Shown one piece after another: positions 4,488 through 64,000 of a DNA stretch of 64,000 nt. Positions within the stretch are counted from its first letter, which is position 1. Each line of letters begins with the position of its first letter. The stretch spans positions 18,141,101-18,205,100 of the forward strand of contig NC_134025.1 of assembly GCF_964204645.1 (NCBI RefSeq), given 5' to 3'. This DNA comes from Tubulanus polymorphus (taxonomy: Eukaryota > Animalia > Nemertea). Position numbers and translations under genes: made by a program. The notes below the pieces were generated by a model. That model saw only the letters and a list, made by a program, of their open reading frames with translations, made no database searches and was not told the DNA's origin.

Positions 4488-7400
4488 TTAATAACCATAA
4501 GGTAATGTTTTTATTCCATCATCCAAAATATATCTTTTATCGTCGAATGGATTTAAGCTAGTTTTTTTTTCAAATTCATTAATGTACATCTCGTGATCTT
4601 CTGATCTTAAACAATTCATTTTATGTTTCATTACAATTGAGTTATATAAACACTTTATATAATCTTGAAATTCTATATGTTTATCAACCACATGCTTTGT
4701 TATTCCTTTTAACTGTTTAGCTTCATGTTCTATAACTACACATTTTACTTCTTATCCCAACAAATTCAATCATTTCATCACCCCCTAATTCATCTTTAAA
4801 TTTACCAGGAATTTTCTATATTATCATTGCTAAATAAGTCATGATCTTTTGGATAATTGCTAAAGTCAAAATGATGTTTTAATGTTTTTAAGTCTTTTGT
4901 TATGTCATTTGTCTTGATTTTTAGTATGTAACTGTCGGTATTGAAGCAAATTAATGGAAACCCACAATTAAATGTACCATCTTCAGTTGTTAAATCATAT
5001 ACATAATCTGATGGGTTATATATTTCAAATAAATCTGTAACTTCTTCAGTTAAATCTTTTTCTGTGTGGCTTAAATTAAAGCAATTTGGTTTAGATTTAA
5101 TCAACCCAATATTCATATTAAAACCTAATGAATTGCGTAATATATTCAATCCTGATATAGCAACTTTTCTTTTCTGAGCTAAAGGTATAATTTTGTCTCC
5201 TGCAAATCACCATCTGCAACAGAGAATCCAATGAAGAACCATTTTCTTAGATTATATTTTGCATTAAATACATAATCTGGAACTATCTTTTCTTTGGTTG
5301 AAGTATTAATTTTAACTATTGCATCAGTATGGAATTCATCATTATATTTAATTGCAAAATCTTTAGGATTGTTTACAGGTATTCTATAAACCGCTGTTGA
5401 TTTCATAGTATCTATGATTTTAAATGTTTTATGCACATGAACTTCTTCACAATATTTCTTTATTCTTTCCGATAATTTCAAATCTTGATTACATAAATAC
5501 CAACAATATTTAGATCCACTTACATAATTATACACTCCTGCTGAACCATCTCCCATAAAAAAATCCTCTGATAAAATATTCTTTTTCTTTCAATGTTTCA
5601 GGTTCTATGTTATAAATATTATCAATTACTTCATCAAATGACTTATGATTCATTCTTGGATAAAATCTTTTATGTAATAATTCATCAATTTTTAAATCAG
5701 TTGGATTATTTCATCACCATTTTGTTTAATAAAACTATGATCTTCAGTAACATCAACAAATCCTAATTTATTTCTAACTCTATAAATCTTCTTATTGGTT
5801 TTATGTCCAATTATATTCTTTAATTTTTTCCATCAATTTTTGTCCAAACATCCATCAATCCATTCATTTGTATTAATTCTTTTTCACCATATGAAATATG
5901 AAGTTCATTTTGTTTAGAAATTATTTCTGAAATTCTTCTAATTAACATTTGTTTATTATATTTTAATAATATTGGGGTGTCTGCTGTTACAGAATAAAAA
6001 TATAATATTTCATTATGCTTTTCCCCAAGAAGTGGTTGTAAAACATTATAATAATAATCGTACATTAATAATTTAGATATTTCTAAAACAGTCTAACCAA
6101 TGAATATAGGTTTATTAAATTTCATTGACGTACTTTTTATTTTTACTGCTGTTAAATAATCTTCAAATCTTTTATTTCCTAAGTGTCTAGGACTTGATTG
6201 TAAATGTCTCAATCGTTCAAAATTATTTACTAATTCAATATCATTTCTATTTCTAATATTTTCACATGATTTTCCAAAAAAACTATTATTCATTAATTTG
6301 AAGAAATCTTTTTCAAAATCTGTTTTAGATACAATATATCATATATATTTATATATATTATTATGTTATTATTATATTCATCATTTGCTATAAAATACCT
6401 ATCTCCCGTAACACCACTAATTCCACCTCTAATTGATTTTTTCAAATAATAAAACAATGTCTGTTTCTTTTAATAAATCTAATTCTACATTTGTATACCC
6501 TATTGCCAGGTTAAACCAGGACTTGAATAACAATAACAAGGATCAACATAAAAATGATTTAAATTAACTTCTCTAAATTTTTCAAATATATCAGTCAATA
6601 TCATAACATCTGATTTTAAGTATAAATCTACTAATTCACCATGATTTTTTATCTTAAAATGATTCCAAATATTTAATGTCTTATTAAAAACTCCATCTTT
6701 CACGTACTCCTCTTTTAATTGATCATAAAATTGTTCTTTTAATAATTCTGTTACATTAAAATCATCGTGTGTTTTATAAAATGAATTAGGAATTGCACCT
6801 TTAAATCTCAATAATTTTAAATCTTGTTCATTTGGATAATAATGTCGAGTTATTACAAAACCATTATCAACTAAACTTTTTGCTAAATTATCTAATGAAC
6901 TTGCTAAAAATCTATGAGAATCTAAAAATCTCAAACAACCAAATTGAAATGAAATGTAATTTTCAGATTTCTTAGCTAATAGTTTAAAATCATATTTTCT
7001 TACATTTAAAGAATTTATAGCATTATATTATTCTATTTCTTGATTAATTACGCCTAATTTTCCTGATAATTGTTTTATAAATAAGTGGGTATCATATCCT
7101 GATAAATTATGAAATAATATTGGTACGAAATCTAGTTTTTTAGCTTGTATATAACAATCTTCATGAGCAGCTCCGCGATATTTTGAATTTAAATGATCAT
7201 GATCTTTAACTTTTTCACCAAATAGATAAAAACGTTTTTCACAATAACAACAATGAGTTGCATAATTAAAATCAATTTCATCTTCTTTTGTCATTACTAT
7301 TCTTTTATTTTGTTTAATAATTGTGCAAAATCACTTTCTAGTTCAATTATTTTATTGCAAAATTTACTACATCTTCACCTCTAAAAGAAATATATTGACT

Positions 7401-9103
7401 TTCATATAATTCGGGCTAATTTGATTTTATATAAATTGCATAAGCAGCAGCTCTTTGATGAACTTTTTTAATTGTATTTATGATTGGTGGGTCTTGAATT
7501 ATGTCTTCATTTAGTTCATTTCCTTTAGCCATTGATTTTATAAATTACTTTTTGTTATACATTTCTTTTCTATCTTGATCAGTTAATTCTTTATTCAACG
7601 ATTCAAAATCCCCATAAATTACAAATGGCACTATATTTTTAAATCTATGATTAGTAAATTTCAATTTATAATCTTTTGTTGTTGGCATTATTAATTTGCA
7701 AAAATCTTTCATTATCACATAATTCTTTATGTTTTAGTTATGCATTTCCAGTTCTAAATTTAGAAAAACATTTTCTACATAGATACATTTTATTATGGTG
7801 ATCACTTTCTGTTCTAAAGAATAAATCTATCTATTTTAACCCCATCTAATGTTCATTTTCATCTTTTTTTGTAATATAAAAAATCTATAACATTTTCATC
7901 ATCATAATATTCTGTTAGATATAAAGCTTCTAATGTATAATCTTTAATATTTTCACCTTTTGTCTCTGGTAATTGCATTAATTCGAATACATTCGTTTTT
8001 AAATTATTAACTTTTTCTATTTCAGGAATTATCTTAAAAATTACTGGATATTGATCAAATTTATATAATGTTTCATATTTCCGATAATCTGTTATTCTAT
8101 AAACATGTTTTCTGTTGGATGTAAACAACTATTAATTGACCATAGAAAACATTTATTATCTTAATTTTGAACATTTATAACTGCTTTTGTTGTAAATGGT
8201 TATTTAATACCAGATGATGCTTTAATATCCTTTTCTGTTGTAAAGTTTGAGTCATTTTTAAACATTGTATTACTTTTTGATGCTTTAGTCCTTTTTGTAT
8301 TATAAATATTGAAATCTAAAAATATAATTTCATTCAAAGTTAAACCAGAACCCTCAAAATATCTTTCCTCAATATGACGTTTAAATTACTTAAATATTTT
8401 TTTCTAATTTCTCTTTTATTTGTGTTTTTGAAATTATTTCTTCAGAATGTGTTTGAATATTATACTTCATTTTTCTTCTGATTTTATAAAACTAACTTAC
8501 TTTTCCAGCAATACTAATTTTTGGGTATTCAACATCTGTTACATTATTACTTTATTATTTTTTCCATTACTTCAATATATTTACTATAATCTTCTATTGT
8601 TGTACCTTTAAAAAATCTAAATATAATAGCTGCAGGACCAATTTTACTACGTAATGTTTTTAAAATTTCAATTGTATCTTTTATTTCTAGTGAATCAATA
8701 TAATTTCTAACATTTTCCATGTAAGGTTTATTTGAAATGAATTTAGTTTTTGAAGCTGGTATTTTTACTTGTTGAGGTTTATCATCAAAATATTCTGTTC
8801 CTAAAATATTTTCATTTAAATTTTGTTTGTGTTTTTGTGATTCGAGATGTCTTTTATAATCCCTTTTACTATAAATTCATTACAAACTTCACATTTTATT
8901 TCGTCTTTTTTCACATCATTTAATCGTATTTTTTTTTCATTTGAATTTTCTGGTGTCTCAAAATCTACAACATTTTTTTATGATTTGCAGTTTTTTCATG
9001 TCGAGATTTTTTGAGATTTATCGATGAATTTTTTACAATGTGTACAATAATATTGATTTTTATTAACATCTTTTTTTTCTGTCTGGAACTCACTGTCTCT
9101 CAT
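4488..9103 (-). pseudogene. polB: Protein-primed family B DNA polymerase (Polinton type), intein-containing, with N-terminal zinc fingers and an endonuclease VII-like motif
   Basis: Motifs CCYC..VKDHDHLNSKYRGAAH, FHNLSGYD, RFLDS, YLKSDV, SIRGG, KLMNNSFFGK, YF.|TDS, LNPFDDKRY. ATG at 9103 lies in a TAAATG context. Many frameshifts, and motif A (DANNLYG) is deleted at ~6330-6380. Confidence 0.93.
4940..5993 (-). other. Intein (class 1, Ser1...Asn/+1 Thr) with LAGLIDADG homing endonuclease, inside PolB
   Basis: Block A SVTADTPILL; block B GFVDVTEDHSFI; endonuclease blocks FIRGFFMGDGS and FFIGFSVADGD; blocks F/G YVYDLTTEDGTFNCGFPLICFN followed by TDS. Absent from the sister PolB (ILYFD|TDSYILKIK at 56452-56490). 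Confidence 0.92.
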
Positions 9104-29458: not shown

Positions 29459-30192
29459 CGGCAGCATCCTGGCGACAATTATATTTACCTTTTTTTTTGT
29501 AGCTCCCAGAAACATAATTATTTTAAATTAAATTAATTTTCTATGTGAAAAAATCACACATAAAAACAATTTACATTTATATTTACCATTTTTCTCGATG
29601 GCGGCCATCTTTCTGTGTGAAAAAAATCACACAGAAAAATAATTAGTTATATTTATCTTTTAGTAGCTCCCAGAAACATAATTATTTTAAATTAAATTAA
29701 TGTTCTATGTGAAAAAAATCACACAGAAAAATAATTTACATTTATATTTACCATTTTTCTCGATGGCGGCCATTTTTCTGTGTGAAAAAAATCACACAGA
29801 AAAATAATTTATATTTATATTTACCATTTTTCTCGATGGCGGCCATTTTTCTGTATGAAAAATCACACAGAAAAATAATTTATATATATATTTACAATTT
29901 TTCTCGATGGCGGCCATTTTTCTGTGTGAAAAAAATCACACAGAAAAATAATTTATATTTATATTTATCATTTTTCTCGATGGCGGCCATTTTTCTGTGT
30001 CAAAAAATCACACAGAAAAATAATTTATATTTATATTTACCATTTTTCCCGATGGCGGCCATTTTTCTGTGTGAAAAAATCACACAGAAAAATAATTTAT
30101 ATTTATATTTATCATTTTTCTCGATGGCGGCCATTTTTCTGTGTGAAAAAATCACATAGAAAAATAATTCCTATTTATATTTATCATTTTTC
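29459..30192. mobile_element. Second, right-truncated copy of the same MITE/minisatellite
   Basis: Same left TIR after TA, then ~10 repeat units, no right TIR. Confidence 0.85.
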
Positions 30193-31064
30193 GCGCGGTG
30201 TTGCCGAGACATTCTGCGGGCTTAATGGTGATAGGTACCGGTACGGCGAAGTTTTACGTAACTAGTAATTACAGATAACACACCATGGACGAGTCTTTCA
30301 AAGAACACCTTCGCTCGTTGAACATTGATGAAACGATCATCAATCACTTAGAAAAAGAGAAGGTAAGGTACATAGTCGTATTAGGCCTCTCCTATTGTTT
30401 CCTTAGTCGCTATAGGCATACATCTCGGGGTATAGTAGACCTATAGGTCTACGAAATATGTAGCCAGACACAGCGCCGTGACAATATGATCGATTTTTTC
30501 TCGTCATTACGAATTACGGGTACGTTTTACGTTTTACGACAAACGTCAAATGAATTAGGTCAAGGTTTCCTACAATTACAAAATATCGTGAATTAAGTTT
30601 CACTAATTACAAATTACATTTTACGTTTTAAAAATTGAAAATTCCGTTTTGCGAATTACAAATTATGTTTCCCAAAAGACCTCTCGCGATAAAATGAACC
30701 GAGATGTAGTGGAAAATCGTTAAACGTCCATAACATTATTCGTAAAACGTAATTCGTAATTCATAAAACACAACGAGTACCGTACTCGTCGAATCGTAGT
30801 GTCGCTCAAGGGGGAAGTGGTACCGTAACAAAATGAAATTAATTAAATTAGGGCTAGAGTTTAGGAATTCAACCTCTCGAGGGTCCAGAGGGTTAGATGG
30901 TCGAGGGGTTGGAGTTATAATAGGGTAGGTAGGGCTAGGCTATATCTAGTAAACATTGACCCATATGGTTTTAGTGGTTAGCTCGTTGCTGGTTGAATTC
31001 CATTGTATGCATCTAGAGCTATAAATGGTTTTTAATCAAATCAATACGTTTTTCTATTTCAGTT

Positions 31065-40321: not shown

Positions 40322-41533
40322 ATGAGTGGGAGTTATATAAGTCCTTCTAAGAATCATAGAATATCTAATGCTATTAAAGCAGAAAGATCACATCATATAA
40401 TTACTCATAACCCTTCTAATATTAATACCGATGAAACTTTTTATGTTCCAAATAGTATTTATTTATCAGCCGATATAAAAGTAATCGGTAATAATAATAA
40501 TTATGTTGTTGATAATGTTGGAAGATATTTGATTAAAAAGTTAACAATAAAGATTGGTCCAGAAACAGTTTTCTCATTAGATGATTATAATTTATTTATG
40601 CATTATAAAGATTTATGGTTAACTAAAGAAAATAGAAATAATATGATATTTCAGGGTATTCAATCAGAAAACCAAAATAAATTAAGATCAGAAGCTAATA
40701 GCGCAATATTAACTAATGATGTAGATAAATTGATAAAAAGTATATATGGAAGCAAATATAAAATTCCATTAGACTTTGAATTGATAAATAATAATGCACC
40801 TTTATATAAATACGCAATTCAAGAAAACGTTATATTCGAAATTACATTTGCTCCTGTTAATGAAACTGTAATATCTAGCGTTAATAAAGATATGAGCTAT
40901 AAATTATCGAATATATGTTTAGAATATGATACAGTAACTGATGAAAATATTACAAGTATAATTCAAACTCAATACAATCAAGGATTTTCATTATTATATG
41001 ATTATATTGATAAATTTAAAACTGTAACTATTAATGCAAATGATGAAATTATTAATGAGAATATTAACTTCCCAAGAAGATCTATTAAAGGTATATTAAT
41101 ATTTTTTACCATTGCAACATATACTAATGGTGCAATGAATGTTGATAATTATTATAATCCTGAAATAACAAAAGTTGAAAAAACTATCGAAGGAATAGCA
41201 AATAAAATATTTTGCCAAGGAATGAGAATGATTGATCAATGGCCAGAAATTAGAAAACATTTTATGAATGAAAAAGTGAAATCATCTGAAAATTGTAATA
41301 TTAATCAAATTGATTATTATACCGGTAATAAATACGCATTATGGTTAGATTTTAGAACAACAGAGGATAATTCATTACGTGGTTCTGGAAAAAAACTACA
41401 GAACACTAAAGATGGAATACAATTATTCATGACAAAGAATAAAGGAATCAAAAATTTTAAAATGCACATTTATATTATATCTGACGCGCAATTAAATATT
41501 GTAAATTCTCAATTAAATAGTGTTATGTATTAA
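40322..41533 (+). CDS. Major capsid (hexon-like) protein, open frame with a 33-bp deletion
   Basis: 403-aa beta-rich protein (HIITHNPSNI, IPLDFEL, YKLSNICLEYD, KYALWLDFRT, DAQLNI) in a Polinton context. Confidence 0.82.
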   Translation: MSGSYISPSKNHRISNAIKAERSHHIITHNPSNINTDETFYVPNSIYLSADIKVIGNNNNYVVDNVGRYLIKKLTIKIGPETVFSLDDYNLFMHYKDLWLTKENRNNMIFQGIQSENQNKLRSEANSAILTNDVDKLIKSIYGSKYKIPLDFELINNNAPLYKYAIQENVIFEITFAPVNETVISSVNKDMSYKLSNICLEYDTVTDENITSIIQTQYNQGFSLLYDYIDKFKTVTINANDEIINENINFPRRSIKGILIFFTIATYTNGAMNVDNYYNPEITKVEKTIEGIANKIFCQGMRMIDQWPEIRKHFMNEKVKSSENCNINQIDYYTGNKYALWLDFRTTEDNSLRGSGKKLQNTKDGIQLFMTKNKGIKNFKMHIYIISDAQLNIVNSQLNSVMY

Positions 41534-42414: not shown

Positions 42415-42799
42415 TAAAGGTTGAAAATTGTATAAAATAATAGTAAATAAAAAAGGGGGTTTTAAGTATTAAGGTATTTAATACATATCTAATACGTATC
42501 TAATACGTATCTAATATGTATCTAATACATATTATTTGAAAATACCTTAAATTATATTTCTTTTTAAATTTATATTGAAACCTCAGTAATGATAAATAAC
42601 CTTTATTATTTTCAAACTTATTCATATATTGAAAATAAAAAATGAAAATAAATTGGTTGAAAATTGTATAAATAATATTTATTAGGGTATCTAATAGGGT
42701 ATCAGGTATTAGGTGGTATCAGGTATTAGGGTATCTAATAGGGTATCAGGTATTAGGGTATCTAATAGGGTATCTAATACATAGGTATTCAAATAGTTA

Positions 42800-43408
42800 T
42801 TTTATAAATTTATATTCATAGGGAAATTGTAGTCTCAGTAATAATTTTGAACCTTTATTATTCTTTAATTTATTCATTTATTCATCATGTAACTCAGTAG
42901 GTATAATTTGATTTTCTTCCAATGATTGTTGCATAGATTTTCTATCTTTGTTATAGAATAAAACTAGAAATCTTATATTCTCCCTAAAGTCTTTAACAAT
43001 TGAATTATATTTTTGATTTAAAACCCATGTTGTTATCCCAAAATGTCTTCTAGAGAAAGCTAAATAACATAACTCACTTTCTTTTACTTTTGAATCATGT
43101 AAATTTGCGCAATCATCTATAATGAATAATGTATTTGATCCTTTATAAGTATCAATTGCTATTTTTATACAATTATCTAAATTTTCTTTTACTGTTTTAG
43201 GATCTAATATAATAAACTTTTTCATCTTAACTATGTCTCTATTATATGTTTTATTCATTTCATAAGTAGGACAGAATAATATTATATTATCAAAATGATT
43301 CTTATAAATAGTTTCTAACAAATCTAATATGAAATGTGTTTTAACACAATTGGTTACACCAGTAACTAACATATTATGCGGTTCGAATATGAATAAATCT
43401 TTATTCAT
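42800..43408 (-). pseudogene. A32/FtsK-family DNA packaging ATPase
   Basis: Walker A GVTNCVKT (G>V compared with GVTNCGKT in the copy at 59770), Walker B FIIDD, RH motif, LNQKY; premature stop. Confidence 0.88.
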
Positions 43409-44504
43409 TTATTCTTTTAATTTTACTAGATAAAATCCATTCATTAAACTTATCATCATATCCTTTATATTTCACCAAAGAATACTTTTTTCCTTTAAGA
43501 GATTTTGTTTTCAATACTTTTTCTATTTTGTATTCTATTTCATCTGGATTTGGTACAAGTGATAATTCTTGTTCATAGAAATAACCTAATATTTCTTCAT
43601 CTTTTAGATCTTCTAGTTTATAAACAAAAGGTTTAGTTAATATTATCTTTTTAATTTTAAATATTTCTTCAGTAAAATTAGGGGTATAACCTTTATAAAA
43701 GGTTTTTCTATATTTAGATATTCTGACGTGTTGTCCAATTTTGAATCTAGGTTCACCGAAATCATGTGTAACAAATGCTCCATATAAATTATTCCAAACT
43801 ATTTCCGTATTATCTTCTTTTCTAGCTTGTATAGGTTTCATATTTATAGAACTATGTTTAGAATTATTATAACATTTCACTAAATCATCTAATATATTTA
43901 TAGCCTCATCGATATATTTATATGTTTCATTAGCAGTAAAATATTTCCACATTCTAGTTTTCAATGTTTTATTGAATCTTTCTATAATAGATGCTTTTTT
44001 ATCTGAATGTGTTGAAAAATAATCTACATCGTTATCAGATAATAGTTTTTTGAAATGTTTGTTATAGAATTCCTTACCTTCATCAAATTGTATCTTATCT
44101 GGAATTGCTTCTTAAAATATAGATTTAAAAGCATTTGTCACTTCTATTCCAGTTTTATTTTTGATTGGAATTGACCATGCGTATCGACTGAATATGTCTA
44201 TAACATTCAGTATCCAGAAATATCCTTTGTTGTGTTCTTCTAAGTTCTTCATGTCAATTAAATCTGCTTGCCATTGTTGATCGATATATGAAACCATAAC
44301 TTTTCTTGTTAAATAAGTTTTATCCATTTTCTTGTGGATTTGATATGTTGGTTGATTTTGTAACCATGATCTTAATTCACTATATTTTATATTACCATTT
44401 TCATTATCAGATTTAATTTTACTTCATAATTCTGAAACGTTAGAATATGATACTTCACTTTCTGGGTTATAATATAACTCTCTTAAATATTGTTCTTTTT
44501 TCAT
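43401..44504 (-). pseudogene. Retroviral-type DDE integrase with C-terminal chromodomain
   Basis: WQADLIDM, IDIFSRYAW, IQFDEGKEF, ASIIERFNKTLK, YNNSKHSSI, chromodomain YKIEKVL..LVKYKGYDDKFNEWI; internal stops. Confidence 0.92.
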
Positions 44505-44510
44505 CTTATT

Positions 44511-44882
44511 TTAATCCATTAATAATAATTTAGATTTAGTTTCAATGACTTTATGATTTGACTTATTTTCTGGTATGATAGGTTTATTATCATTGGAATC
44601 ATTATTGTTATAATCAGATTTATACTTATATTTATATATTACACCGGATAATATAATAATTGTGATTAACCCAATTGTAATATATAAGTAATTATTTCTT
44701 CCACTATTCGAAGAATCAGATGGATTATTATTTGAATTAATATCAGATAAAGTCTGTGATTCATTTATATCAGTTAATTTCTTTTTCTTAGCTTTTTTTA
44801 ATTCTGAAGATCTTTTTCCCAATTCCTTTGCCCATTTAATTTGTTTCTCGGATCTAGCCTTTTTCTTAACTCCATCACTCAT
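44511..44882 (-). CDS. Basic N-terminal, single-TM small protein
   Basis: Intact 123-aa ORF; homologue at 58591. Confidence 0.7.
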   Translation of the reverse strand: MSDGVKKKARSEKQIKWAKELGKRSSELKKAKKKKLTDINESQTLSDINSNNNPSDSSNSGRNNYLYITIGLITIIILSGVIYKYKYKSDYNNNDSNDNKPIIPENKSNHKVIETKSKLLLMD

Positions 44883-45477
44883 TTATTTTAGTTAATTTTT
44901 GTTCTGATTCATTTTCTGTTACGACGTTTGTTTGTAGTACATCTGTTTCGTTCTTACCTGATTTATATTCCATAGGCTTGATGTTCGAAAATGTTATGAC
45001 ACCAGTAGAAATTAATGTCATAACCGATCCTAATTGAAATGAAGCATAACCAACCCATTTTTGTAATTCAGTCATAACTAAATAGTCATTTTTCAAATCA
45101 CTATATAATTTATTTTCATCATCAATTGGTATTAACTGGTTACATAACTTAGAGTAACATTTGACAATACCATCTGCAATAGAATCATTTATTCTAGCTA
45201 ATCTTGCCTCTTAACAAATCTTAAAATATTTTATTACTTTATCTGGTTTCATAGAGTCTAGTTCTTGAAAAGTAATGATTCTGTTTAAAAACTCCTTAGA
45301 TTTTCCACCGGCAATCAATAGTTCTAGATGATGCTTACAATATAAGTAGTATTCATAATCAATATTGTTATTAACTTGAATAAAATCAGAAACAACTGTA
45401 TCTTTATTATCACTTATACCCAAATCATCTAATGTCTTTTCAATATCAATACTATTCTTATTAGATTTCTTTGACAT
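44875..45477 (-). pseudogene. Conserved unknown Polinton protein (MSKKS family)
   Basis: One stop; intact 195-aa homologue at 58011. Confidence 0.7.
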
Positions 45478-45705
45478 TTATATTAGAGAAAAAAAGCAAA
45501 AAAAAATATTATAAGTATTCTTCAAATGATACTAGTATCTCTTTAGATTAATACTAGCTTAGTTTAAGTTAAAGAATTCTAGTATTGGTTATTGTTTTTT
45601 TAGTATTTTTTATTTGTGATATAAAGTATTCTTTTTTTGAAAAGAAAATATTAAAAATATAATAGAATTCACTAGCTAGTTGAAGTTATTGTTTTTTAAT
45701 ATTTT

Positions 45706-46413
45706 TTATTTAAAATCTATTATTCTTGAACCACTCATTAAAGACTCAACGTATTGTTCATTATTTGGATCATTGTTCAATTGATCAATAAATTTCTTTG
45801 CCTTTGTTAACTGTTCTAAATATAACTGTAAATCTAGTTTATTAGATTTAATTATGTTTTCCTTCTTTTCTAAAGGTCTTAAATTCTTCCAATTCCAAAT
45901 AAGTTTTTTATTGTATTCATCATTCATGTTAAATTTAGTTATATAAAATAATGTTAATATTGTTAACACGTGATCAATATGGTAATAATCCCCATAATTA
46001 TCTATATTAATTTTATCATCGAATTGAAATATAATCCATGATTTGAAAAATTCATCTGAACAACCCAATAAATTAGATAGTGTTTCTGAATGTGTTTCTT
46101 CGTTGAATAATTGTGTTAATCTAGATCTTAAGCTTTGTTCCAATCTAAAATTAAGATCTGTTTGATATCTTTCTCTCATATATTCTGCCATATAATAATT
46201 ATAATGTTCTATATTATCTTCTCGGTATTGTTTGGTATATAGTTTAAAACAAGTTTTACAGCAATATTGAAAACCATCTTTGCTAATCTTACGCTTACTA
46301 AATTCTGTTGAAGCTAATTTATCTAATTCACATTTAGAACACTTCTTGTAGTATATATTTATAACACCAGTGTTATTTGTAATATTGATAATTTGTGGTT
46401 GTTCTGGTTCCAT
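45706..46413 (-). CDS. HNH endonuclease with N-terminal CxxC..CKxC zinc module (large-DNA-virus-like)
   Basis: KKCSKC..FSKRKISKDGFQYCCKTC; LLGCSDEFFKSWI; NYGDYYHIDHVL; WNWKNLRPLEKKENIIKSNK. Confidence 0.75.
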   Translation of the reverse strand: MEPEQPQIINITNNTGVINIYYKKCSKCELDKLASTEFSKRKISKDGFQYCCKTCFKLYTKQYREDNIEHYNYYMAEYMRERYQTDLNFRLEQSLRSRLTQLFNEETHSETLSNLLGCSDEFFKSWIIFQFDDKINIDNYGDYYHIDHVLTILTLFYITKFNMNDEYNKKLIWNWKNLRPLEKKENIIKSNKLDLQLYLEQLTKAKKFIDQLNNDPNNEQYVESLMSGSRIIDFK

Positions 46414-46549
46414 TTATTATACGTATTTTTTACTAAATTGGTTAATATTTTAGAATCCTCTTCCATTTCTTCGACCAACGTCATCCTTTTTCATTCCTCG
46501 CTGCTTTTGATAAGTTGTTTCGATTCCTTGATATCTAAATCATACCAGT

Positions 46550-48313: not shown

Positions 48314-49002
48314 TGCGCTTATAGCGTAGAGCGGGGAATCCCTGCTGTACAGTGATACAATAGAGAACATGCGCGCTGTATTGTATTACCACTGACACGC
48401 GGTAATGTAAAATTGTCCCAATCATTACTAACTTGATAACTAACTTCATAACTAACGTGATGTAGTTAATTTCGCATCATAATAGCACCAGAGAACAAAC
48501 TTCGTAGGCCTAATTTTTAATACATTTTAATTACAATTTTAACATTCGATAATTAAATTGATAGGCAAAATTAATGCCAAAATTGTAGGCCTATATGTAA
48601 TTCTCACGGTCACTCAATGAATTTTTTTTTATGGTTAGTGTGCAATTAACACCATTACCAAGTTTTTTCTCAGTGTTTTTTTAATTTGAAGTAGTGATAG
48701 ACTTAAACCTTTTTTTTTCTACCTTATGTGACATTTTTTCTGGAGCGTGTGTATTATAATTTAAATCAAGTATAAGTGAATCTTGAAATTACAAGTATAT
48801 AGACACGATCACACGGATACGATTTTGCCCGGGTCAAATTGACACGGATCAGACTCGGACCTAATTTGGCCCGTGTTTAGAGAGCGCGCTAACATGCAAA
48901 CCATTTACTCGATAGTAAACAAAGCGAAGTGGGTCATTCATGGTACCAGTTCCAATTCAAACGCAATCATTTGTCTCGTGCTAAATCTGGCTCGGGCCTG
49001 GC

Positions 49003-52000
49003 ACATGAGAATTGTAACTTACAAGCTAAGAAAATTAACTTTGTACCAGTTATATTTCATAATCTATCAGGATATGATTCGCATCTATTTGTCAAACAGT
49101 TATGCCATGAAATAGAAGAAATTAATAATGAAATAGAAAGATTAAATTCAAATAGATCAAAAGATAAAATACCAACTTATAAATTTAAAATGTTAGCTAG
49201 AACATCTGAGAATTATATATCATTCCAATTTGGTTGCCTAAGATTTATAGATTCATATAGATTTTTAAATAGTTCATTAGATAACTTATCAAAATCATTA
49301 GTTGATGCTGAATTATTCATTTTATAAAAATCATAATGATTTTAACATAACTGAATTATTAAAAGAACAATTCTATGATGAATTAAAAAATGAATATGTT
49401 AAAGATGAAGTATATAATAGAACATTGAATATTTGGAATCATTTTGGAATGAAAAATCATGGGCAATTAGTAGATTTATATTTAAAATCAGATGTATTAT
49501 TATCAACTGATATATTTGAAAGATAAATATATTCGATATATTAAAGATAAAAACTGATAACATAACTGATGATTTAAAAACATTAAAACATCATTTTGAT
49601 TTCAGTCCTAAAGATCATGAATTGTTTAGCAATGATAATAAAAAAGTTCCAGGGAAGTTAAAGGATGAATTAGGTGGTGAAGAAATGATAGAGTTCATCG
49701 GTATTTGATCTAAAATGTATTCATATAAAACTAAAGAACACGAAGCTAAAAAGTTAAAAGGAATAACCAAAAGTGTAGTAGAAAAGAATATTCATTTCAA
49801 AGATTACATTAATTGTATATTCAATGAAGAAGTTAGAAAACATAAGATGAGATGTTTAAGATCTGAAGATCATGAAATGTTTATTGAAGAGATAGAGAAG
49901 ATAAGTTTAAACCCATTCGATGATAAAAGATATATTCTGGATGATGGTATACACGCAGTTGCTTATGGTTGCAGAGGGTTTATGATTTATATGAGAAATA
50001 AAGATAAATGGTTTCATATATTTTTAAAACCAGGATTATATAATTTAGAATCATTAGCGCAGGAAATTAATAGAAGAGCTCGGTTGAAAATCGGGGGTAC
50101 TTCTGTATTTGAAATTAAATTTAATAAAATTGATAGTACTAATAAAATAAGAATAAAGATTTCTAATGAACAACATAAATTTATGGTAAACAAACCACTA
50201 GCTAAAATGTTAGGAATTAAACCGCTTACAGTTACTGGAAACGCAGAAGGCAGCTCAAATATAATACCTTTTACACACTTTTATATTTATTGCAATTTAA
50301 TCGAGCCTACAAAAACTTTCGAAGCAACTAAAGAAACAATTTGTAGTTCTAGTATACTAAATATTTTACCGCTAAAAAATGTTTTGGAACTCAAATAAAT
50401 TATAATTTAACAGAATGTGATTTTAAACCGTGCATTCCTAAATTTAATAATTTTAAATTAGAAATAGGAAATCATAATGGACATTTAATTGATTTGAATA
50501 ACTTTCCTGTGATATATGAATTAGTTATAAGATGTAGAGAGTAATTTTTTCATTATATAAATGAATATAACTGTTGGACCGAGTATATGTTTTGGGTTTG
50601 ATTTTAAACGTGAGAAAAGAATGAAATTTAACATTAATGATGTAATTAAACATATCAAAAATATTGCATTTTCTAATGAAACAACATTTGAGTATGAAAA
50701 AACAATAGATAAAGAAACTTTAAATGTAGAAAAGATTACTAATTTAATTAGAGAATCTATAAGATTTTATGAATTAGATGAAGATTTTATCATTGATGAT
50801 ATTAAAAAAATAATAATTGAAATAAATACAAATGAAACTAGTAATGAAATAAATGTTGAAATAATTATAACTAAGTTAACTAAATATTTTGAAGATAGTA
50901 ATTTTTTTGATAAATAAATGAGTGATAATAAGTGGATAATAACTGGATTATGTAATGGCGCATTACTATCAGTGGGAACTGTTGGTCATTCAATGGTATT
51001 AAAACAAAGTATTCAAAATGGGAAGTGTTAATGTTGATAGATTTGATATAAATGATATTTTAAAATTAACGTTAGCAGTTACTTTATCTAATTTAACTAT
51101 TGATTATTTGGAAAAACAAAAATATATTCCTCCTATATAAATGCATAATTATTTTACTAAATAAATGGCTTCTGCAGTTATAACTATTATAGGATAGGCA
51201 ATTGTTAACGCTTTAGCATTTACTGGTGGTGGATATTTATTTAAGCATATTGATAAAAATAGTTCATTAACAGAACAAAAAAGACATAACTTAGCATTAG
51301 AGAAATACAATAAAGCAGCAGAAGAATATAGAGAAAAGAGACAAAATTATATGGATTATATTAACAAGGAATTATATAATCAGAAGATTTCACACAGAGA
51401 TTTTCAATCAGTTGATGATGCAATGAGTTTATATAACGCGGTAACAAATAAAGAAAAATTACATCTATACAAACCTAAATTATCAGATTATTATACCCCA
51501 AGTAATGAACAGGAGAAATATGAAATAATATGGATTTTAGGCGGAACTGTTATTGTTATATTTGTTGCTTATAAGTTTACTAATTAGTAATTTTTTTTGC
51601 TAAATAAATGGATGATAATATTGATATTATTCCTCATGATATAAATAAAACTAAATTAAAAATATATTTAGAAAAACAAATATTAGAATTTGAAAGTGAC
51701 TAAAAGATAAAAAAGAAAAAATATTTAAAAAGTAAAATTATATATTATTTGATTATAAGTGGTTCGGTTACAATTAGTTCTGTAATAACATTTCTAGCAA
51801 TATTCAGCCCATTAACACCTTTAGCTATATCAATTGGTGTATTAGGATTAAGTTCAAGTGTTTTAACTGGTATAAGTTCAAAATTAAATATAAAAAGTCA
51901 TAAAGAAAAAATTAAAACTAATATAAAAGAAATTAATAAATTAAAAAATACACTAGATTATATAATAAGTTTAAATGGGCATATAACAGTTGAAGAACAA

Positions 52001-53699: not shown

Positions 53700-54580
53700 A
53701 GTTCAAATATCCGAATAACCATAGAAGCGATAACATTAAAAACCTCATTTTCTAATGAGTAAATACAGTTTATTAACACGAACGTTTTCGGGATCATATC
53801 CCCTCATCAGGTGAAATACAAGTGAATCAAATGATTAAACTACAGGTTTATATACAACATAAGTTACAAAATTACAAGTGCTAAATTCTAAGCTAATTAC
53901 AAACCAAGTATTTAATTACAAACTAATTATTTGAATACATTTAGGATAAAGGATGAGCCGTTTTGAAATAATTGTTGATTTAAAGAGGGTCGTTGCGCTT
54001 TAATAAACAGGGCCTCCCTAATTTTTTTACAGTCGAGATCAGATGAACCTTTGTCTAGAATTTTGAATTTGTTGTTACTGAATTCCTGATCACAAGTGTG
54101 ACAAATTGCGAGATGTTGTCCAATCGCAGAAGTCTTTGATCTGTGTTCCTTAATCCTGATGGCCAAATGTCGTTTAGTTTTCCCAATATAGGAAGTGTTT
54201 ATATCACATAAACAATTAAATTTATATATGACTTTAGCCTTCAGCGATTTAGGGGTAGCACATTTCAAAGAGAAAAAATTCTTAATTTTGGTCGTAGTGA
54301 ATGCACATTTCAAGTTGATTTCAAAATTCCTTTTAAATAGATATTTTAATTTTCGGGCAAATAGGATTGACGGGTTACCAATATACGGTAATGAAATGAA
54401 TAGATCAATTCCATCTTCAACAGGTTTCGGTTGAGGTTCTGAGTTCTGTTTTGATTTCAAAAATCTATTAATACATTGATCGATGACATGAATAGGAAAC
54501 GCATTAGATTTAAACAGATTTTTCAAAAAACGCATTAGATTTAAACAGATTTTTCAAAAAATCTGTTTAAATCTAATGCG
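53700..54580 (-). mobile_element. 5'-truncated Penelope-like retroelement (GIY-YIG endonuclease)
   Basis: ORF 53927-54535: VIYKFNCLC..SYIGKTKRHLAIRIKEH..SAIGQH..REALFIKAQRPSLN; 3' hammerhead present. Confidence 0.9.
53777..53813 (-). ncRNA. Minimal type I hammerhead ribozyme
   Basis: CAC-CUGAUGA-G-GGGA(UAUGA)UCCC-GAAA-ACGU-UC-GUG. Confidence 0.85.
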
Positions 54581-54589
54581 ATTATCCAG

Positions 54590-56960
54590 AACTAATTGAA
54601 AGTGAATATTATCATTATATAAATGAAAATGTTATCAATCATTTTGTTACTTATTAATTGAATACGAAATAAAATTTAATGAAAAGTTTAATGAAAATAA
54701 AGAAATTATAATGACAGAAGAAGATAAAGAAGAATTTGAGTTTGCTGATAAATGTTTTTATTGTGAAAAGATATTTAATCTAAAAGATAAAAAAGTTAGA
54801 GACCATGATCGTTTGAATGGAAAGTTTAGAGGCGCAGCGCATAAGAATTGTAACTTACAAGCTAAAAAAATAAACTTTGTTCCAGTTATATTTCATAATT
54901 TATCAGGGTATGATGCTAATTTATTTATCAAACAGCTATGTCATAAAATAGAAGAATTCAATAATGAAATGGAAAGATTAAATTCAAATAGATCAAAAGA
55001 TAAAATACCAACTTATAAATTTAAAATGTTAGCTAAAACATCTGAGAATTATATATCTTTCCAATTTGGGTGTCTAAGATTTATAGATTCATATAGATTT
55101 TTAAGCAGTTCATTAGATAATTTATCAAAATCATTAGTTGATGATGAATTAAAGATATTAAAGCAACACTATCCAAATAATGATGATTTTCAATTAATGA
55201 GATATAAAGGCGCAATTCCATATTCATTTTTATAATTCACATAATGATTTATATACAACTGAATTATTAAAAGAACAATTCTATGATGAATTAAAAAATG
55301 AATATGTTAAAGATGAAGTTTATAATACAACATTGAATATTTGGAATAATTTCAAAATAAAAAATCATGGACAATTAGTAGATTTATATTTAAAATCAGA
55401 TGTATTATTATTAACTGATATATTCGAAAGGTTTAGAGATGTAAATCTAAAATATTTTAATATTGATCCTTGCAATTGTTATTCTAGTCCAGGTTTAACT
55501 TGGGATTGTGGTTTAAAATTTACAGATATAAAAATGGATTTGTTAACAAATATAGATCAATTATTATTATTTGAAAAATCTATAAGAGGAGGAGTTTCAT
55601 GTGTATTAGGCGATAGATATTTCAATGTAAATGATAACCCTGGATATAAGTTATTATATATAGATGCAAATAATTTATATGGTTGGGCAATGATGGAACC
55701 TCAACCTTATAGAGTATTTGGAATGACTGAAGTTTTACAACATGAAAATAATGATAAATTTGATTGGAAGAAAAGAATTCTAGATATTGCAGATGATTCA
55801 GACACTGGTTACTTTTTTGTGGTAGATTTAGAATATCCTGAAAACATTAAGTTTAAATCTAGAAATCTAGCATACTGTCCCGAACATAAAACTGTAACAC
55901 ATGAAGAATTATCAAGTTATCAAAAAAGAATTAAACCTGATAATCATATTCATACAGAAAAGTTAATGGTAACTCAAGAAGATAAATATAATTATGTAGT
56001 GCATTATAGAATGTTAAAATTCTATTTGAATCAAGGAATGGTTCTAAAAAAAAGTACATAGATATATTTCATTCAGTCAATCTAAATGGTTAGAAAAATA
56101 TATAGATTTTAACACCAAACAGAGAACTAAAGCTAAAACTGATTTTGAGAACGATTTTTTCAAACTAACGAATAATGCATTCTATGGTAAGACTTGTGAG
56201 AATATTAGAAATAGAAATGATATTGAGTTGGTGAGCAAAGGTAAAAGAATTAGACATTTACAAACATATCCTAAATTTATTGGTAACAGAATATTTGATG
56301 AAAATTTAGCTGCAGTTAAAATGAAAAGAACTTCTATGAAATTTAATAAACCAATTTATGTTGGAGCTACAGTTTTAGAAATATCAAAGTTACTAATGTA
56401 TAAATTCTATTATAACGTATTAAACCTCATTTTGGAGAAAAGCGCATAGAAATCTTATATTTTGATACCGATAGTTACATATTAAAGATTAAAACTAATA
56501 ACATAACAGATGATTTAAAAACATTAAAACATAATTTTGATTTCAGTAATTATCCAAAAGATCATGAATTGTGAACAATGATAATAAAAAGGTGCCTGGT
56601 AAATTCATTGGAATTCGATCTAAAATGTATAGTTATAGAACTAAAGAACATGAAGCTAAAAAGTTAAAATGTATAACAAAAAGTGTAGTAGAAAAGAATA
56701 TTCATTTTAAAGATTACATCAATTGTATATTCAATGAAGAAGTTAGAAAACATAAGATGAAATGTTTACGATCTGAAGATCACGAGATGTTTATTGAAGA
56801 GATAGAGAAGATAAGTTTAAACCCATTCGATGATAAAAGATATATTCTGGATGATGGTATACACGCAGTTGCTTATGGTTGCAATTTAGAAGAATACTTA
56901 AAATTTAAAAGAGAAGAAGAGAAAGAAAAGGAAATAATGAACAGGATTCTAAAATGTTAA
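54590..56960 (+). pseudogene. polB: Protein-primed PolB, intein-free allele (copy P7)
   Basis: VRDHD, FHNLSGYD, SIRGG, YIDANNLYGWAM, KLTNNAFYGK, YFDTDS (uninterrupted), LNPFDDKRY; frameshifts. Confidence 0.93.
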
Positions 56961-56988
56961 TCAATTTTAGTAAAAATATGTATAATAA

Positions 56989-57673
56989 ATGGAGTCAGAA
57001 CAATCACAAACTATAAATATTCACCATAAGAAATGTTCAAAATGTGAATTAGATAAATCATTATCAGAATATCATAATAAAAAAAACTCAGAAAGATGGT
57101 AAGCAAAGTTATTGTAAAACTTGTAGTAAACTAAGTGACAAACAAAATTATAGAAATAATACTGAAACACGCAAGGATAAGATTGAGCAATATCAAGCAA
57201 ATGATAGAGAATATTATAATGAACTGAATAAGAATTATCAAAAAGAAAGGCGCCGAACAGATTTTAATTTTGAATTGAAATAATGTTTACGGTCTAGATT
57301 ATCACATTTATTCAGTAAAGATTAACATTCAGTTACACTATCTAATTTATTGGATTGTTCAGATGAATTTCTCAAATGCTGGATTATATATCAGGTCAAT
57401 GAAAAAATGAATATGAATAATTATGGTGAATATTTCCACATTGATCATGTGTTGCCGATTTCTAAATTTAACATGAATGATGAACACAATCAGAAATTAA
57501 TTTGGAATTGGAAAAAATTTAAGACCCCTTGAAAAGAAGGAAAATATTAGGAAAGGAAATGAACTAGATTTACAGTTATATTTCGAACAGTTAGATAAAG
57601 CAAAGAAATTCATTGAATTATGGAATAGTGATCCAAATAATGAAAAATATGTTGAATCTTTATTGAGTGGTTA
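56989..57673 (+). pseudogene. HNH endonuclease, homologue of 45706-46413
   Basis: KKCSKC, YCKTC, NYGEYFHIDHVLPIS, WNWK; stops and frameshifts. Confidence 0.75.
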
Positions 57674-58010
57674 AAGAATATTTTGTGGATTTATAATCGA
57701 GGATCCGAAATGACTTATCTGGACAGTTATTGTAACTGCTCCTATAGATAGACAAAAGTAGTGGGTATTAAATCCTAATTCAAATAAAATATATTAAAAA
57801 TTACATATCTTTAACTAGCCATTATTTCTATTATATTTTTATTCAAAATCTATTATTTCTTTTAAAAAAGAGATTAAAAATAGATTTTGATAAGATTTGA
57901 ATAAAGATTCTTTAACTTCGAATAGAAATTCTTTACCTTAACCAAGCTAGTATTAACTAAAGAGTTACTAGTACCATTTTATATTTTTTTCGCTTTTTTC
58001 TCTAATATAA

Positions 58011-58598
58011 ATGTCAAAGAAATCGAGTAAAAATAGTATTGATATTGACAAGACAATTGAAGATTTAGGTATTACAGATAATAAAGATACAGTTGTTACT
58101 AATTGTATTCAAAATAATAATATTGATTGTAAATACTATTTAACATGTAAGCATCATCTAGAATTATTAATTGCCAGCGGAAAGTGTAACGAATTCCTAA
58201 ATAGAATTATAACTTTACAAGAATTAGATAATATGAAACCAGATAAAGTAATAAAATATTTCAAAATATATGAAGAAGCTAGATTAGCTCGAATAAATGA
58301 TTCTATTTCGGATGGAATAGTTGAATGTTATTCTAAGTTATGTAACCGAGTAATACCAATTGATGATGAAAATAAATTATATACTGATTTAAAAAATGAT
58401 TACTTAGTTATGACAGAACTACAAAAATGGGTTGGATACGCTTCATTCCGATTAGGCGGAATAATGATATTAATTTCTACGGGCGTAATAACATGTTTTA
58501 ATTTCAAACCTACAGTAAATAAACCAGATAATATCGAATCAGATAATAAATCAGAAGATATTGAATCAGAACAAAAATTAACTAAAATGAATGAGTGA
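58011..58598 (+). CDS. Conserved unknown Polinton protein (195 aa)
   Basis: Intact ORF, homologous to 44875-45477. Confidence 0.72.
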   Translation: MSKKSSKNSIDIDKTIEDLGITDNKDTVVTNCIQNNNIDCKYYLTCKHHLELLIASGKCNEFLNRIITLQELDNMKPDKVIKYFKIYEEARLARINDSISDGIVECYSKLCNRVIPIDDENKLYTDLKNDYLVMTELQKWVGYASFRLGGIMILISTGVITCFNFKPTVNKPDNIESDNKSEDIESEQKLTKMNE

Positions 58599-58950
58599 TG
58601 ATACTAAGAAGAAGCCTAAATCTGAAAAACAAATTAAATGGGCTAGGGAATTAGGTAAAAGATCTTCAGAATTAAAAAGAGCTAAGAAAAAGAAATTAAC
58701 TGTGATAAATGAATCGCAGAAATTATCTGATATTAATTCGAATGATAATTTATCTAATGCTTCTAATACTGGAAGAAAAAATTACTTATATATTACAATT
58801 GGGTTAATCACAGTAATTATATTCTCTGGCGTAATATATAAATCTAAATTCAAATCTAATAATAATGAAGATGATAAACCTATTATACCAGAAAATAAAT
58901 CAAATGATAAAGTCATTGAAACTAAACCATGATTATTATTAATGGATTAA
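58591..58950 (+). pseudogene. Basic/TM small protein
   Basis: Homologous to ORF 44511; early stop near the C-terminus. Confidence 0.7.
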
Positions 58951-58956
58951 AATAAG

Positions 58957-59777
58957 ATGAAAAAAGAACAATATTTCTGGATATTAAATGTTATAGATAT
59001 ATTCAGTAGATACGCTTGGTTTATTCCAATCAAAAATAAAACAGGTATAGAAGTTACTAATCCGTTCAAGTTAATATTTAAAGAAGCTATTCCAGGTAAG
59101 ATACAATTTGATGAAGGTAAGGAATTTTAAAATAAACATTTTAAAAAATTATTATCTGATAACAGTATAGAATATTTTTCAACACACTCTAATAAAAAAG
59201 CATCTATTATAGAAAGATTTAATAAAACATTGAAAACTAGAATGTGGAAATATTTTATAGCAAATGAAACATATAAATATATCGATGTATTAGAGGATTT
59301 AGTGAAAGGTTATGATAATTCTAAACATTCAAGTATTGGTGTGAAACCTATACAAGCTAGAAGAGAAGATAATTCAGAAATAGTTTGGAACAATTTATAT
59401 GGTGCATTTGTAACGCATGATTTTGGAGAACCTTAATTTAAAATTGGTCAACATGTTAGAATATCTAAATATAGAAAAACATTTTATAAAGGTTATACTC
59501 CAAATTTTACGGGACAAATATTCAAGATTAAAAAGATATCAACTAAACCTTTTGTTTATAGATTAGTAGGTTTAAAAGATGAAGATATATTAGGTTATTC
59601 CTATGAACAAGAATTATCGCTTGTACCAAATCCAGATGATATAGAATACAAACTAGAAAAAGTATTGAAAACAAAAACTCTTAAAGGAAAAAGTATTCTT
59701 TGGTTGAATATAAAGGGTATGATGATAAATTTAATGAATGGATTTTATCTATTAAAATTAAAAGAATAAATGAATAA
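58957..59777 (+). pseudogene. DDE integrase-chromodomain, N-terminally deleted
   Basis: IDIFSRYAW, IQFDEGKEF, IERFNKTLK and chromodomain; stops. Confidence 0.88.
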
Positions 59778-60381
59778 AGATTTATTTATATTTGAACCGC
59801 ATAATATGTTAGTTACTGGGGTAACAAATTGTGGTAAAACACATTTCATATTAGATTTATTAGAAACTATTTATAAGAATCATTTTGATAATATAATATT
59901 ATTCTGTCCTTCTTATGAAATGAATAAAACATATAATAGAGATATAGTTAAGATAAAAAAGTTTATTATATTAGATCCTAAAACAGTTAAAGAAAATTTA
60001 GATAATTGTATTAAAATAGCAATCGATATTTACAAAGGATCTAATACATTATTCATTATAGATGATTGTGCTAATTTACATGATTCAAAAGTTAGAGAAA
60101 GTGAGATATGTTATCTGGCTTTCTCTGGGAGACATTTTGGGATAACAACATTGGTTTTAAATCAAAAATATAATTCAATTGTTAAAGATTTTTGAGAAAA
60201 CATTAGATTTCTAGTTTTATTCTACAATAAAGATAGAAAATCGATGCAACAATCATTGGAAGAAAATCAAATTATACCTACTGAATTACATGATGAATAT
60301 ATGAATAAATTAAAAAGTAATAAAGGTTCAAAATTATTACTGCGGCTTCAATTTCCTTATGAATATAAATTTATGAAATAA
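59770..60381 (+). pseudogene. A32/FtsK packaging ATPase
   Basis: GVTNCGKT, FIIDD, SGRH; stop at 60193. Confidence 0.88.
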
Positions 60382-60399
60382 GGTATTTCAAATAATTAA

Positions 60400-62220: not shown

Positions 62221-62875
62221 TGATAAATTTAATGACCCACCACGTACGAGTATCCCAGAAACACCCGCCTATTTAAATGAAGAAATCCCACACTTCGAAT
62301 TTAAAATTATACGATTAAATTTATTCTTACGAAACCACAACGTTTCGGCTGTTGACTAACAGCCATCATCAGGTGGAATGACCAGAAAAACAAGTAACAA
62401 AGCATATAAACTCACAGGATCTAAAATAGAAGCAGTGTGTCAAAATTGAAGATAAACAGACCAAGCAATAAAACATCAAGGGGTACCGTGGAAACCACAG
62501 CAATTCTAAACAGTTCAGAGTAAAAACAAATTATGTAACTATTTGAAGTGGACTGAAGAGAGTGGCGATAACAGAGTGACACATAGTGACATTAACCCAA
62601 ATCTAATAAAGAGTTGATGTGTCTGAATAATAATTGGTTATGTGGATAAAAACCAGTATTTAAATTAGTAGATAAATTGGATTTCGGAAGTTTACATATA
62701 AGGGCTGATTCCACTATGTGTCTCTTATGAATATCTCTACAAGGATAGATTAGTTTCGAATTCTGAAAGTCAAATTGGTGATTGGTTGTAAAGACATGAT
62801 TTGCTATTCCACTCTCAGGCTTTTGGTTGCGGATATCTATTTTGTGTTCTTTAATACGCTGACTGAGAGTAATTG
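62220..62875 (-). mobile_element. Second Penelope-like 3' fragment (GIY-YIG C-terminus plus UTR)
   Basis: Minus strand LSQRIKEHKIDIRNQKPESGIANHVFTTNHQFDF...HIVESALI..NLNTG. Confidence 0.8.
62335..62376 (-). ncRNA. Minimal type I hammerhead ribozyme
   Basis: CCAC-CUGAUGA-U-GGCUGUU(AGUC)AACAGCC-GAAA-CG-UU-GUGG. Confidence 0.85.
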
Positions 62876-62879
62876 GGAA

Positions 62880-64000
62880 AGTAGGCTTTCAGATCAGAGG
62901 TCGAAGGTCGACCACTCATCACCACAAGTAATTTTTTTTCCTAATAAATAGGAGATAGAAAAGCATTCTTAGCAACAATAAATAACAGAATTAAACCAAC
63001 AAAAAAAAAATTTGAAATAAAAAAGTTAGTTGATGTTACAAAAGAAATTGAACATAAGATATTGAAATTAGAAAAGATAAAAACTAAATATGGAGAGAAA
63101 GTATCAGCGAATTAAGAAATAAAAATAAGTTTAGAAAAATTAAATTTTTTTTTTTTTCCTTTTTCCAAAAATAAACACACTTTTTAATATAAAAGCGCTA
63201 ATAAAATGATAAAATTGTTCAATATTAAAAGTGTGAGTATAATAATTTAGATTTTCAATATTAAAAGTGTGAGTAAAGTGTGAGTAAAATGATAAAATTG
63301 TTCAATATTAAAAGTGTGAGTAAAGTGTGAGTAAAATAATTGAGATTTTCAATATTAAAAGTGTGAATAAAGTGTGAGTAAAATAATTGAGATTTTCAAT
63401 ATTAAAAGTGTGAGTAAAGTGTGAGTAATAATTTTGTTATAAAAATGAAGAAAGAAGAACCCAACTTCAAAATCGAAATCAATGAAACCAATAAATCATT
63501 TTCACAGTTTAACATTAGAAATTATATTTCAGCAACAAATTTAGTTTAAGGAAGACAATATAAAATTGATAATATTACTGTAATTAATCAAATATTATTA
63601 AATGAAACATATTTAATTACTGAACTAATAGATACTTTAGATAATGGCGCCAAAAATCCTAAAATATTTAATACAGTTTTAAATTATAAAGGTAATTTAG
63701 ATGAAAACATAATAAATATTCTTAAATTTCCTTTTAATGAAAGAGAAAGTGATATAATACTTTCAAAAGGTAATGATAGGATAGACTTAAGAATTGAAAA
63801 ACGACAATTATATTATTGTAATTTTGATAATAAACAAATTATTTATAATGAAAATACATCAAATATTGAAATTCAATGTGATTTAGAAAACAATAATTCT
63901 TTTAAAGATATTGCAATTCAGTGTGATTTAGAAAATAGTAAATCTTTTAAACATATCGCAATGCAATGTGATTTAGAAAATGAATTCAAAAGATTTAATC
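62880..64000 (+). mobile_element. Polinton copy P9 terminus, iterons and degraded ORFs (runs off the right edge)
   Basis: AGTAGGCTTTCAGATCAGAGGTCGAAGGTCG..CACTCATCACCACAAGTAATTTTT matches the P1 end at 9115-9183 in reverse complement. Confidence 0.75.
63200..63428. repeat. Subterminal iterons (mostly 47-bp spacing)
   Basis: TTCAATATTAAAAGTGTGA(G/A)TA at 63218, 63254, 63301, 63348 and 63395; a related motif occurs in reverse complement at ~47885-47912. Confidence 0.85.

Follow-up and report, generated by a model that had tools for sequence, protein, structure and literature searches.

Within the 64-kb stretch of DNA analysed here (the window), one decayed polymerase gene, P1, is interrupted by an intein at its catalytic motif C, and a second decayed copy, P7, has the same motif free of the intein. 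The question raised by this locus is whether P7 is an intein-free allele of P1 on which homing has acted, as the initial annotation proposed, or an ordinary polymerase of its own lineage. The reading that we consider probable is that P7 has a normal intein-free site and that P1, a member of another subfamily, carries a broken copy of an intein that has been spreading among Polintons by homing.

Judged by its coding content, the window is a heap of decayed Polintons/Mavericks of the adintovirus-like kind (Table 1). P1 and P7 lie ~50 kb apart and are distinct insertions, both decayed: P1 contains many stops and frame changes and has an internal deletion upstream of motif B; P7 lacks its 5' end, consists of six collinear pieces in changing frames and has a gap just downstream of the site, and one of its pieces matches PF03175, the protein-primed PolB family (E 8e-7). 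The rve, Chromo and Pox_A32 matches sit in fragments neighbouring P1 and P7, and a common element is assumed for neither copy. The capsid candidate had an Atlas feature score of 0.98 to viral clusters, some of which have Capsid_N/Capsid_NCLDV on 10-14% of their members, with recognition below the threshold of the tool and no Pfam match. Inverted matches within the window were found between scrambled fragments, and no Polinton element ends were recognised there. The ATPase-integrase block is present as inverted copies at 42531-46463 and 56939-60391 (71-90% identical) and the capsid-side block in several copies (80-92% identical), which suggests that the window consists of clustered Polinton fragments nested in one another.

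Table 1. Positions in the window of the polymerase copies, the intein and genes of neighbouring decayed elements.
Feature	Position	Strand	Remarks
P1, decayed protein-primed PolB hosting the intein	4491..9061	-	
Intein coding sequence in P1, 1,054 bp	5993-4940	-	Ser start, TEDH, LAGLIDADG motifs, Asn end
Probable double-jelly-roll capsid gene of neighbouring decayed element	40322-41533	+	Atlas feature score, lead only
A32 ATPase of neighbouring decayed element	42878-43408	-	Pox_A32
Integrase with chromodomain, neighbouring decayed element	43401-44423	-	rve, Chromo
Third polymerase fragment, P7-like (92% downstream)	48962..49972	+	
P7, 5'-truncated, frameshifted protein-primed PolB pseudogene of a Polinton	54580..56960	+	

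The GC-richer middle of the window contains an ISXO2/IS1595-type transposase (22372-23203, minus strand), DUF3987 (23946-24584, plus strand) and fragments of Myb/SANT (25513-25926, plus strand) and of a Pao peptidase (16563-17018, plus strand). Immediately upstream of P1 there is an EF-hand (calmodulin-like) coding piece at 9093-9290, of which a partial copy, 80% identical, lies at 62867-62958. Pao elements are mainly found in animals, and the Pao retrotransposon, ISXO2-type transposase, Myb/SANT and EF-hand pieces together point to a eukaryote, likely an invertebrate animal. A partly inverted tandem array with a period of ~72 bases spans 28544-30195. The place of the missing 5' end of P7 is occupied by a 208-residue frame on the minus strand (53927-54553) with no Pfam match; by eye it resembles the GIY-YIG portion at the C terminus of Penelope-like retroelements.

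In P7, EILYFD/TDSYILK (39 bases; the slash marks the insertion point) is encoded at 56449-56487 of the plus strand, with the insertion point between 56466 and 56467. The bases quoted in the initial annotation are therefore present, but not at 56452-56490, where it had placed them, which is three bases off. Its observation that P7 is collinear with both flanks of the P1 insert is confirmed: 13/15 bases match on the 5' side and 14/15 on the 3' side (i.e. 27/30 around the site), the wider flanks match at 24/30 bases on each side, and blocks found by tblastn and blastn place the homology of P7 and P1 beyond chance. A search of the window with the site sequence gave one match, the single intact empty site found there. 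The third polymerase fragment had been a candidate for a second empty or filled site and is ruled out, as an internal deletion has taken out the insertion site, leaving P7 as the only empty site found. The P7 site is the ordinary catalytic motif C (YxD/TDS) of a decayed Polinton polymerase, intein-free.

P7 had also been said to fix the intein boundaries to the base. A boundary does exist, at 5993/4940, but P7 alone leaves it ambiguous by one codon, because two codons, the one preceding the insert and the one that closes it, each depart from the P7 site codon at the first base only; we therefore rejected P7 as the sole basis for setting the edges. What settles the boundary is the chemistry of inteins, with Ser at the start, Asn at the end and Thr as the following residue, together with the intact relatives described below.

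Comparison with P7, L002 and L003 places the P1 insert exactly at the YxD/TDS junction. The insert has a Ser start, a block B (VTEDH), two LAGLIDADG-type motifs and an N/T end (Thr +1), and is divided into five open pieces by four frame changes near 5835, 5705, 5560 and 5207, the first LAGLIDADG motif being cut by a frame change and both motifs still being recognisable. The five pieces match consecutive parts of the intact intein-bearing polymerase P0011 with 55-76% identity. The residue before the insert is not the conserved Asp, which is present in all five intact relatives, and the penultimate residue is Phe in place of His. A penultimate His is usual in inteins but not obligatory; elsewhere in this group the residue is Ser (P0011), Lys (P0133) or His (P0123, P0137 and P0138). 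A Pfam search with three P1 fragments returned no intein family, P1 fragments matched the NCBIfam intein profile models weakly (E 0.04-0.08), and a homologue search with one fragment of the P1 intein gave 0 of 222 candidates. Taken together, the motifs, junction and relatives identify the P1 insert as a class 1 LAGLIDADG intein of the pol-c allele, now broken. Given the four frame changes in the intein and the breakage of the polymerase upstream, P1 would be unable to make either intein or endonuclease. No intact intein was found in the 64-kb window, and a search of sequencing runs for words of P1 gave no RNA run among the matches listed, with shares of at most 0.19.

The initial annotation had described P7 as an allele in the same locus and, on the strength of it, the family as polymorphic for the intein. 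Neither description survives the comparison of the two copies. P1 and P7 are 73.9% identical in DNA upstream of the site (1,332 columns) and 77.6% downstream (416 columns), and 67% identical in protein. In a 59-row polymerase tree built without inteins, P1 was sister to the intein-free P0254 (support 99), P0004/P0254 (i.e. L002) being its nearest intact relative, and P7 grouped with the intein-free P0003, P0255 and P0002 (support 99), its nearest intact relatives being P0001/P0255, P0002 and P0003, all without the intein. A single clade of P1 and P7 was rejected on a 24-row subset of this tree (p-AU 4e-10), which together with the ~74% DNA identity led us to reject P7 as an allele of P1. The two copies are separate insertions of different subfamilies, and polymorphism holds in the wider clade only.

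These results make it decidedly unlikely that P1 and P7 are the intein-plus and intein-minus alleles of one family, with homing between them in this host and integrated empty copies being cut. That reading draws on the close match of the 30 bases around the site and on a local blurring of the signal among four sequences, in which the grouping of P1 with L002 against P7 with L003 is supported at 106/148 informative sites outside the region and at 6/23 between -22 and +261 bases (p 0.002 anchored, 0.014 unanchored), a signal that does not single out which row recombined. Changes private to P1 were not raised in this tract (12/214 columns vs 16/311 just upstream), and sliding-window identity between P1 and L002 showed no drop near the site. 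A different history for P7, namely descent from an intein-bearing ancestor with precise loss of the intein, is highly improbable: intein-plus members do occur in the sister subfamily (P1 and P0332) and in the next clade out (P0011), but the three nearest relatives of P7 are all empty, and state-change counts on an unrooted tree cannot separate gain from loss.

How much an empty site can tell depends on how common the state is. Among the 120 matches listed for a P7 query, 92 had an empty motif C, 4 had an intein and 24 lacked clear coverage, and among 80 metagenome loci counted by eye 75 were empty, one (L074) had an intein and 4 had no clean motif. These polymerases usually have motif C empty and, since this is their default, P7 by itself is uninformative on homing; its sequence makes it a plausible substrate for the endonuclease, not evidence of a homing event. 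In L074 (3070-4089) the intein of an intein-plus pPolB is interrupted by stops, and its sister is the intein-free L004 (76% DNA identity). In many intact-looking pPolBs (P0248, P0246 and 27 of the 120 listed proteins) motif C reads YxD-CDS, not YxD-TDS, and in others TDA; these variants are possibly cleavage-resistant forms of the site.

Sequencing reads gave a similar picture for copies resembling P7, the only copy covered by the read comparison. Run X5, which has the species label of the run richest in P1 words (share 0.19; this may not be the species of the window), placed 3,505 reads (of 1,934 million letters) on 651 bases of P7 at ≥80% likeness, of which only 7 were at ≥99% likeness. Bins had depths of 380-715, and the junction itself was crossed at a depth of 527; there was no dip and no point at which many molecules ended, and none of the six loose ends listed (95-436 reads; 199 more rows) fell at the P7 junction. 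In run X3 one contig had 51 unaligned letters before 56476. Since depth shows no dip and the listed loose ends all lie elsewhere, intein-bearing copies can be no more than a minority in these runs, and the reads on P7 suggest a family of probably hundreds of copies, mostly empty. The abundance of P7-like copies in runs of matching species label is what homing between P1-like and P7-like alleles in this host would call for, but no loose end at the junction was among those listed and the window holds no intact intein.

Intact relatives of the intein were found in other polymerases. P0011 is an intact 1,693-residue pPolB with matches to PF03175, Intein_splicing and LAGLIDADG_3 and a weak match to PI-PkoII (E 4e-4). 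A search with its intein gave 1,295 proteins, 120 of them listed; among these listed matches at least five pPolBs (P0011, P0123, P0133, P0137 and P0138) have a whole intein at motif C, and the rest are nearly all PF00136-type PolBs. P0123 is above the curated cut-offs of PF14890, PF05204, PF14528 and TIGR01445; P0011 and P0133 lie just below those of the intein profile models PF14890 and TIGR01445, and PF14528 is above its cut-off in P0011 as well as in P0123. All five intact inteins keep S1, DVTEDHS, GFFxxDG plus GFYxxDG and N/T in one frame with the host, and are 43-77% identical among themselves. Near P1 there is one more intein-plus member, P0332, whose intein is 67% identical (157 columns) and whose C-extein shares 83% identity with P0254 across 72 residues. 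An intein at this motif also occurs in a giant-virus contig, L001; a comparison of P0011 with viral contigs gave no relative (57 stretches, none confirmed).

The intein of P0133 is 42-45% identical to the other pPolB inteins (E below 1e-75), and its exteins barely align with those of the other hosts (best E 0.001); a shared intein in barely alignable exteins points to a jump between polymerase classes. The fragment P0338 has the C-terminal end of this intein followed by the C-extein of another kind of polymerase, a possible further class-to-class jump. P0131, a protein of 1,897 residues with topoisomerase II-type Pfam families, has a related intein at a D/S site, i.e. in a non-polymerase host.

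The comparative evidence for homing comes from these wider data. The 24-row tree includes 8 intein-plus rows chosen from the 59-row tree, which need 7 state changes; most of them have an intein-free sister, and intein-plus polymerases as one clade were rejected (p-AU 4.7e-7). A single deep clade, the pattern that the initial annotation had named as contradicting homing, is thus not what the intein-plus PolBs form. The trees give no intein frequencies, as the intein-plus rows were collected on purpose.

A local signal is seen in the 90% cluster of P0123, whose members come from contigs of 95 kb to 1 Mb. This cluster has 136 members, 15 of them listed; two fragments missing the site were dropped, and the remaining 13 were compared at the protein level. 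Seven are intein-plus and six intein-free, with exteins 93.8-98.7% identical between the groups. All 10 fixed differences between the groups lie within -7 to +44 residues of the intein, in a tract window that was drawn after the data were seen, and among the 1,716 possible 7/6 splits of the members no other gives more than one fixed difference. Differences distributed in this way look like a co-conversion tract, which a single event may have left. Around the site the intein-free members vary at 5/10 positions, compared with 82/1,111 elsewhere (p 5e-4), and the intein-plus members at 0/10; such variability around the empty site is what cleavage escape or repeated conversion would give. A recombination signal in the flanks, which had been proposed as a check, is seen as a tract in the P0123 family and as a possible, weaker one (described above) in the P1/P7 group. 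The earlier inference that homing was active is supported for Polintons by data outside the window and does not follow from P7 itself.

In the reading that we prefer, the intein of an intact element would excise itself from the precursor of the polymerase, using Ser1, the terminal Asn and Thr +1, and leave motif C whole again. Its endonuclease would cut the intein-free YxD/TDS sequence in the gene of a related element that shares the nucleus, whether free or integrated, and repair off the intein-bearing copy would transfer the intein plus some flank. Decay, loss and resistant sites would keep the distribution of the intein patchy.

The history of the intein itself bears on the alternative that there was a single ancient gain followed by vertical descent, with the patchiness due to repeated precise loss and ordinary recombination and with no recent endonuclease-driven spread. 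We compared 12 pPolB inteins (5 of them partial) with 46 others (the first 45 parseable of 115 listed, plus L001) in an unrooted FastTree tree. The 12 formed one clade (support 100) among the inteins of PF00136-type PolBs, and the P1 intein was 61% identical to that of P0011, against 39% at best to the 46 non-pPolB inteins compared. For pPolB2-type hosts the branching of the inteins mirrors that of the polymerases to a large extent, and intein and polymerase identities are correlated (rank correlation 0.65 over 21 pairs). One pPolB intein clade that branches mostly as the polymerases do suggests long residence in lineages, with loss explaining part of the pattern. The broad congruence of the two trees, the decay of the P1 intein and the fact that long co-residence with repeated loss also yields congruent trees are all in keeping with a single ancient gain; moreover, ordinary recombination could also carry an intein plus flanks, and the seven intein-plus P0123 members may represent one event. 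However, a single ancient gain without endonuclease-driven spread would require many independent exact losses, and is hard to reconcile with a tight tract centred on the intein in P0123 copies that are otherwise 94-99% identical, with the same intein in the barely alignable polymerase of P0133, and with the retention of both endonuclease motifs in all five intact inteins despite their being only 43-77% identical. We therefore regard it as unlikely.

Spread by homing among Polintons is thus the reading that we retain, together with a long history in each lineage. The placement of the clade suggests that a single entry of the intein into protein-primed polymerases, with a giant-virus-type PolB as the source, is likely, although the tree being unrooted makes this giant-virus origin an inference. 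Since then it has likely mostly cycled within lineages (gain, decay, loss and escape), with rare jumps between distant polymerase classes.

The insert has counterparts in known systems. The pol-c inteins of archaeal PolB and Mimivirus PolB are described as inserted at YxD/TDS (Ogata et al. 2005, PMC549080) and, like those of P1 and its relatives, have ~350 residues, Ser first, Asn last, Thr +1, TxxH and LAGLIDADG; the hosts described there are RNA-primed PolBs, whereas here the host is the protein-primed PolB of an integrating Polinton. Eukaryotic inteins are reported from fungi, algae, some protists and NCLDV (Green et al. 2018, PMC5784728) and from virus-like polymerases on algal and labyrinthulomycete nuclear scaffolds (Gallot-Lavallee et al. 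2023, PMC10710043). As in those accounts, viral polymerase inteins can reach eukaryotic nuclear genomes inside endogenous viral elements, but the elements described there are of NCLDV families in non-animal hosts and here the element is multi-copy and self-integrating. The main text of PMC10710043 uses neither 'Polinton' nor 'animal', and that of PMC5784728 neither 'animal' nor 'transposon'.

Insertions of HNH and VSR endonucleases are described in Polinton pPolB (Jeong et al. 2023, 10.1101/2023.08.22.554363; Krupovic et al. 2024, PMC11071308), the HNH-type ones being suggested in the latter as leftovers of intein invasions. They resemble the present case in having an endonuclease domain inside a polymerase, but as described are nuclease domains without a splicing domain, unlike the complete intein in a catalytic motif found here. 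An Endonuclease_7-like insertion is carried weakly by P7 and its relatives. The word 'intein' is absent from the main text of 10.1101/2023.08.22.554363 and of PMC8502044, and PMC12220804, PMC5718144 and PMC4760082 mention inteins in other contexts in the parts consulted. Interference competition by intein and intron endonucleases has been proposed for Bodo saltans virus (Deeg et al. 2018, PMC5871332). Similarly, the empty site of a co-infecting relative would here be cut and rescued by copying, but that proposal, as worded there, is a hypothesis for lytic cytoplasmic giant viruses, and with Polintons the host chromosomes, too, come to hold many empty sites. In the literature as far as consulted, with Repbase, InBase, supplements and subscription journals outside its scope, no description of an intein in Polinton motif C was found.

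A bolder proposal, which we advance only tentatively and judge unlikely as it stands, is that in animal genomes an active homing intein derived from giant viruses drives through hundreds of chromosomal Polinton copies. It would convert empty copies, break host chromosomes at the remaining copies and select for cleavage-resistant forms of motif C (YxD-TDS, -CDS and -TDA), an arms race that would be seen as hypervariable residues around the site in near-identical copies.

Taken by itself, the empty site is nothing unusual. With the intein, the range of the pol-c allele grows from archaea and giant viruses to include the protein-primed polymerases of integrating Polintons, and a complete intein is placed in a nuclear genome that is likely that of an animal. 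As Polintons are multi-copy, so that intein-plus and intein-minus copies can be counted and tracts mapped, the cycle of gain, decay and loss and the recombination between Polintons would be directly testable in one genome. The intein would also serve as a marker by which to trace the exchange of DNA, both between giant viruses and Polintons and between classes of Polinton.
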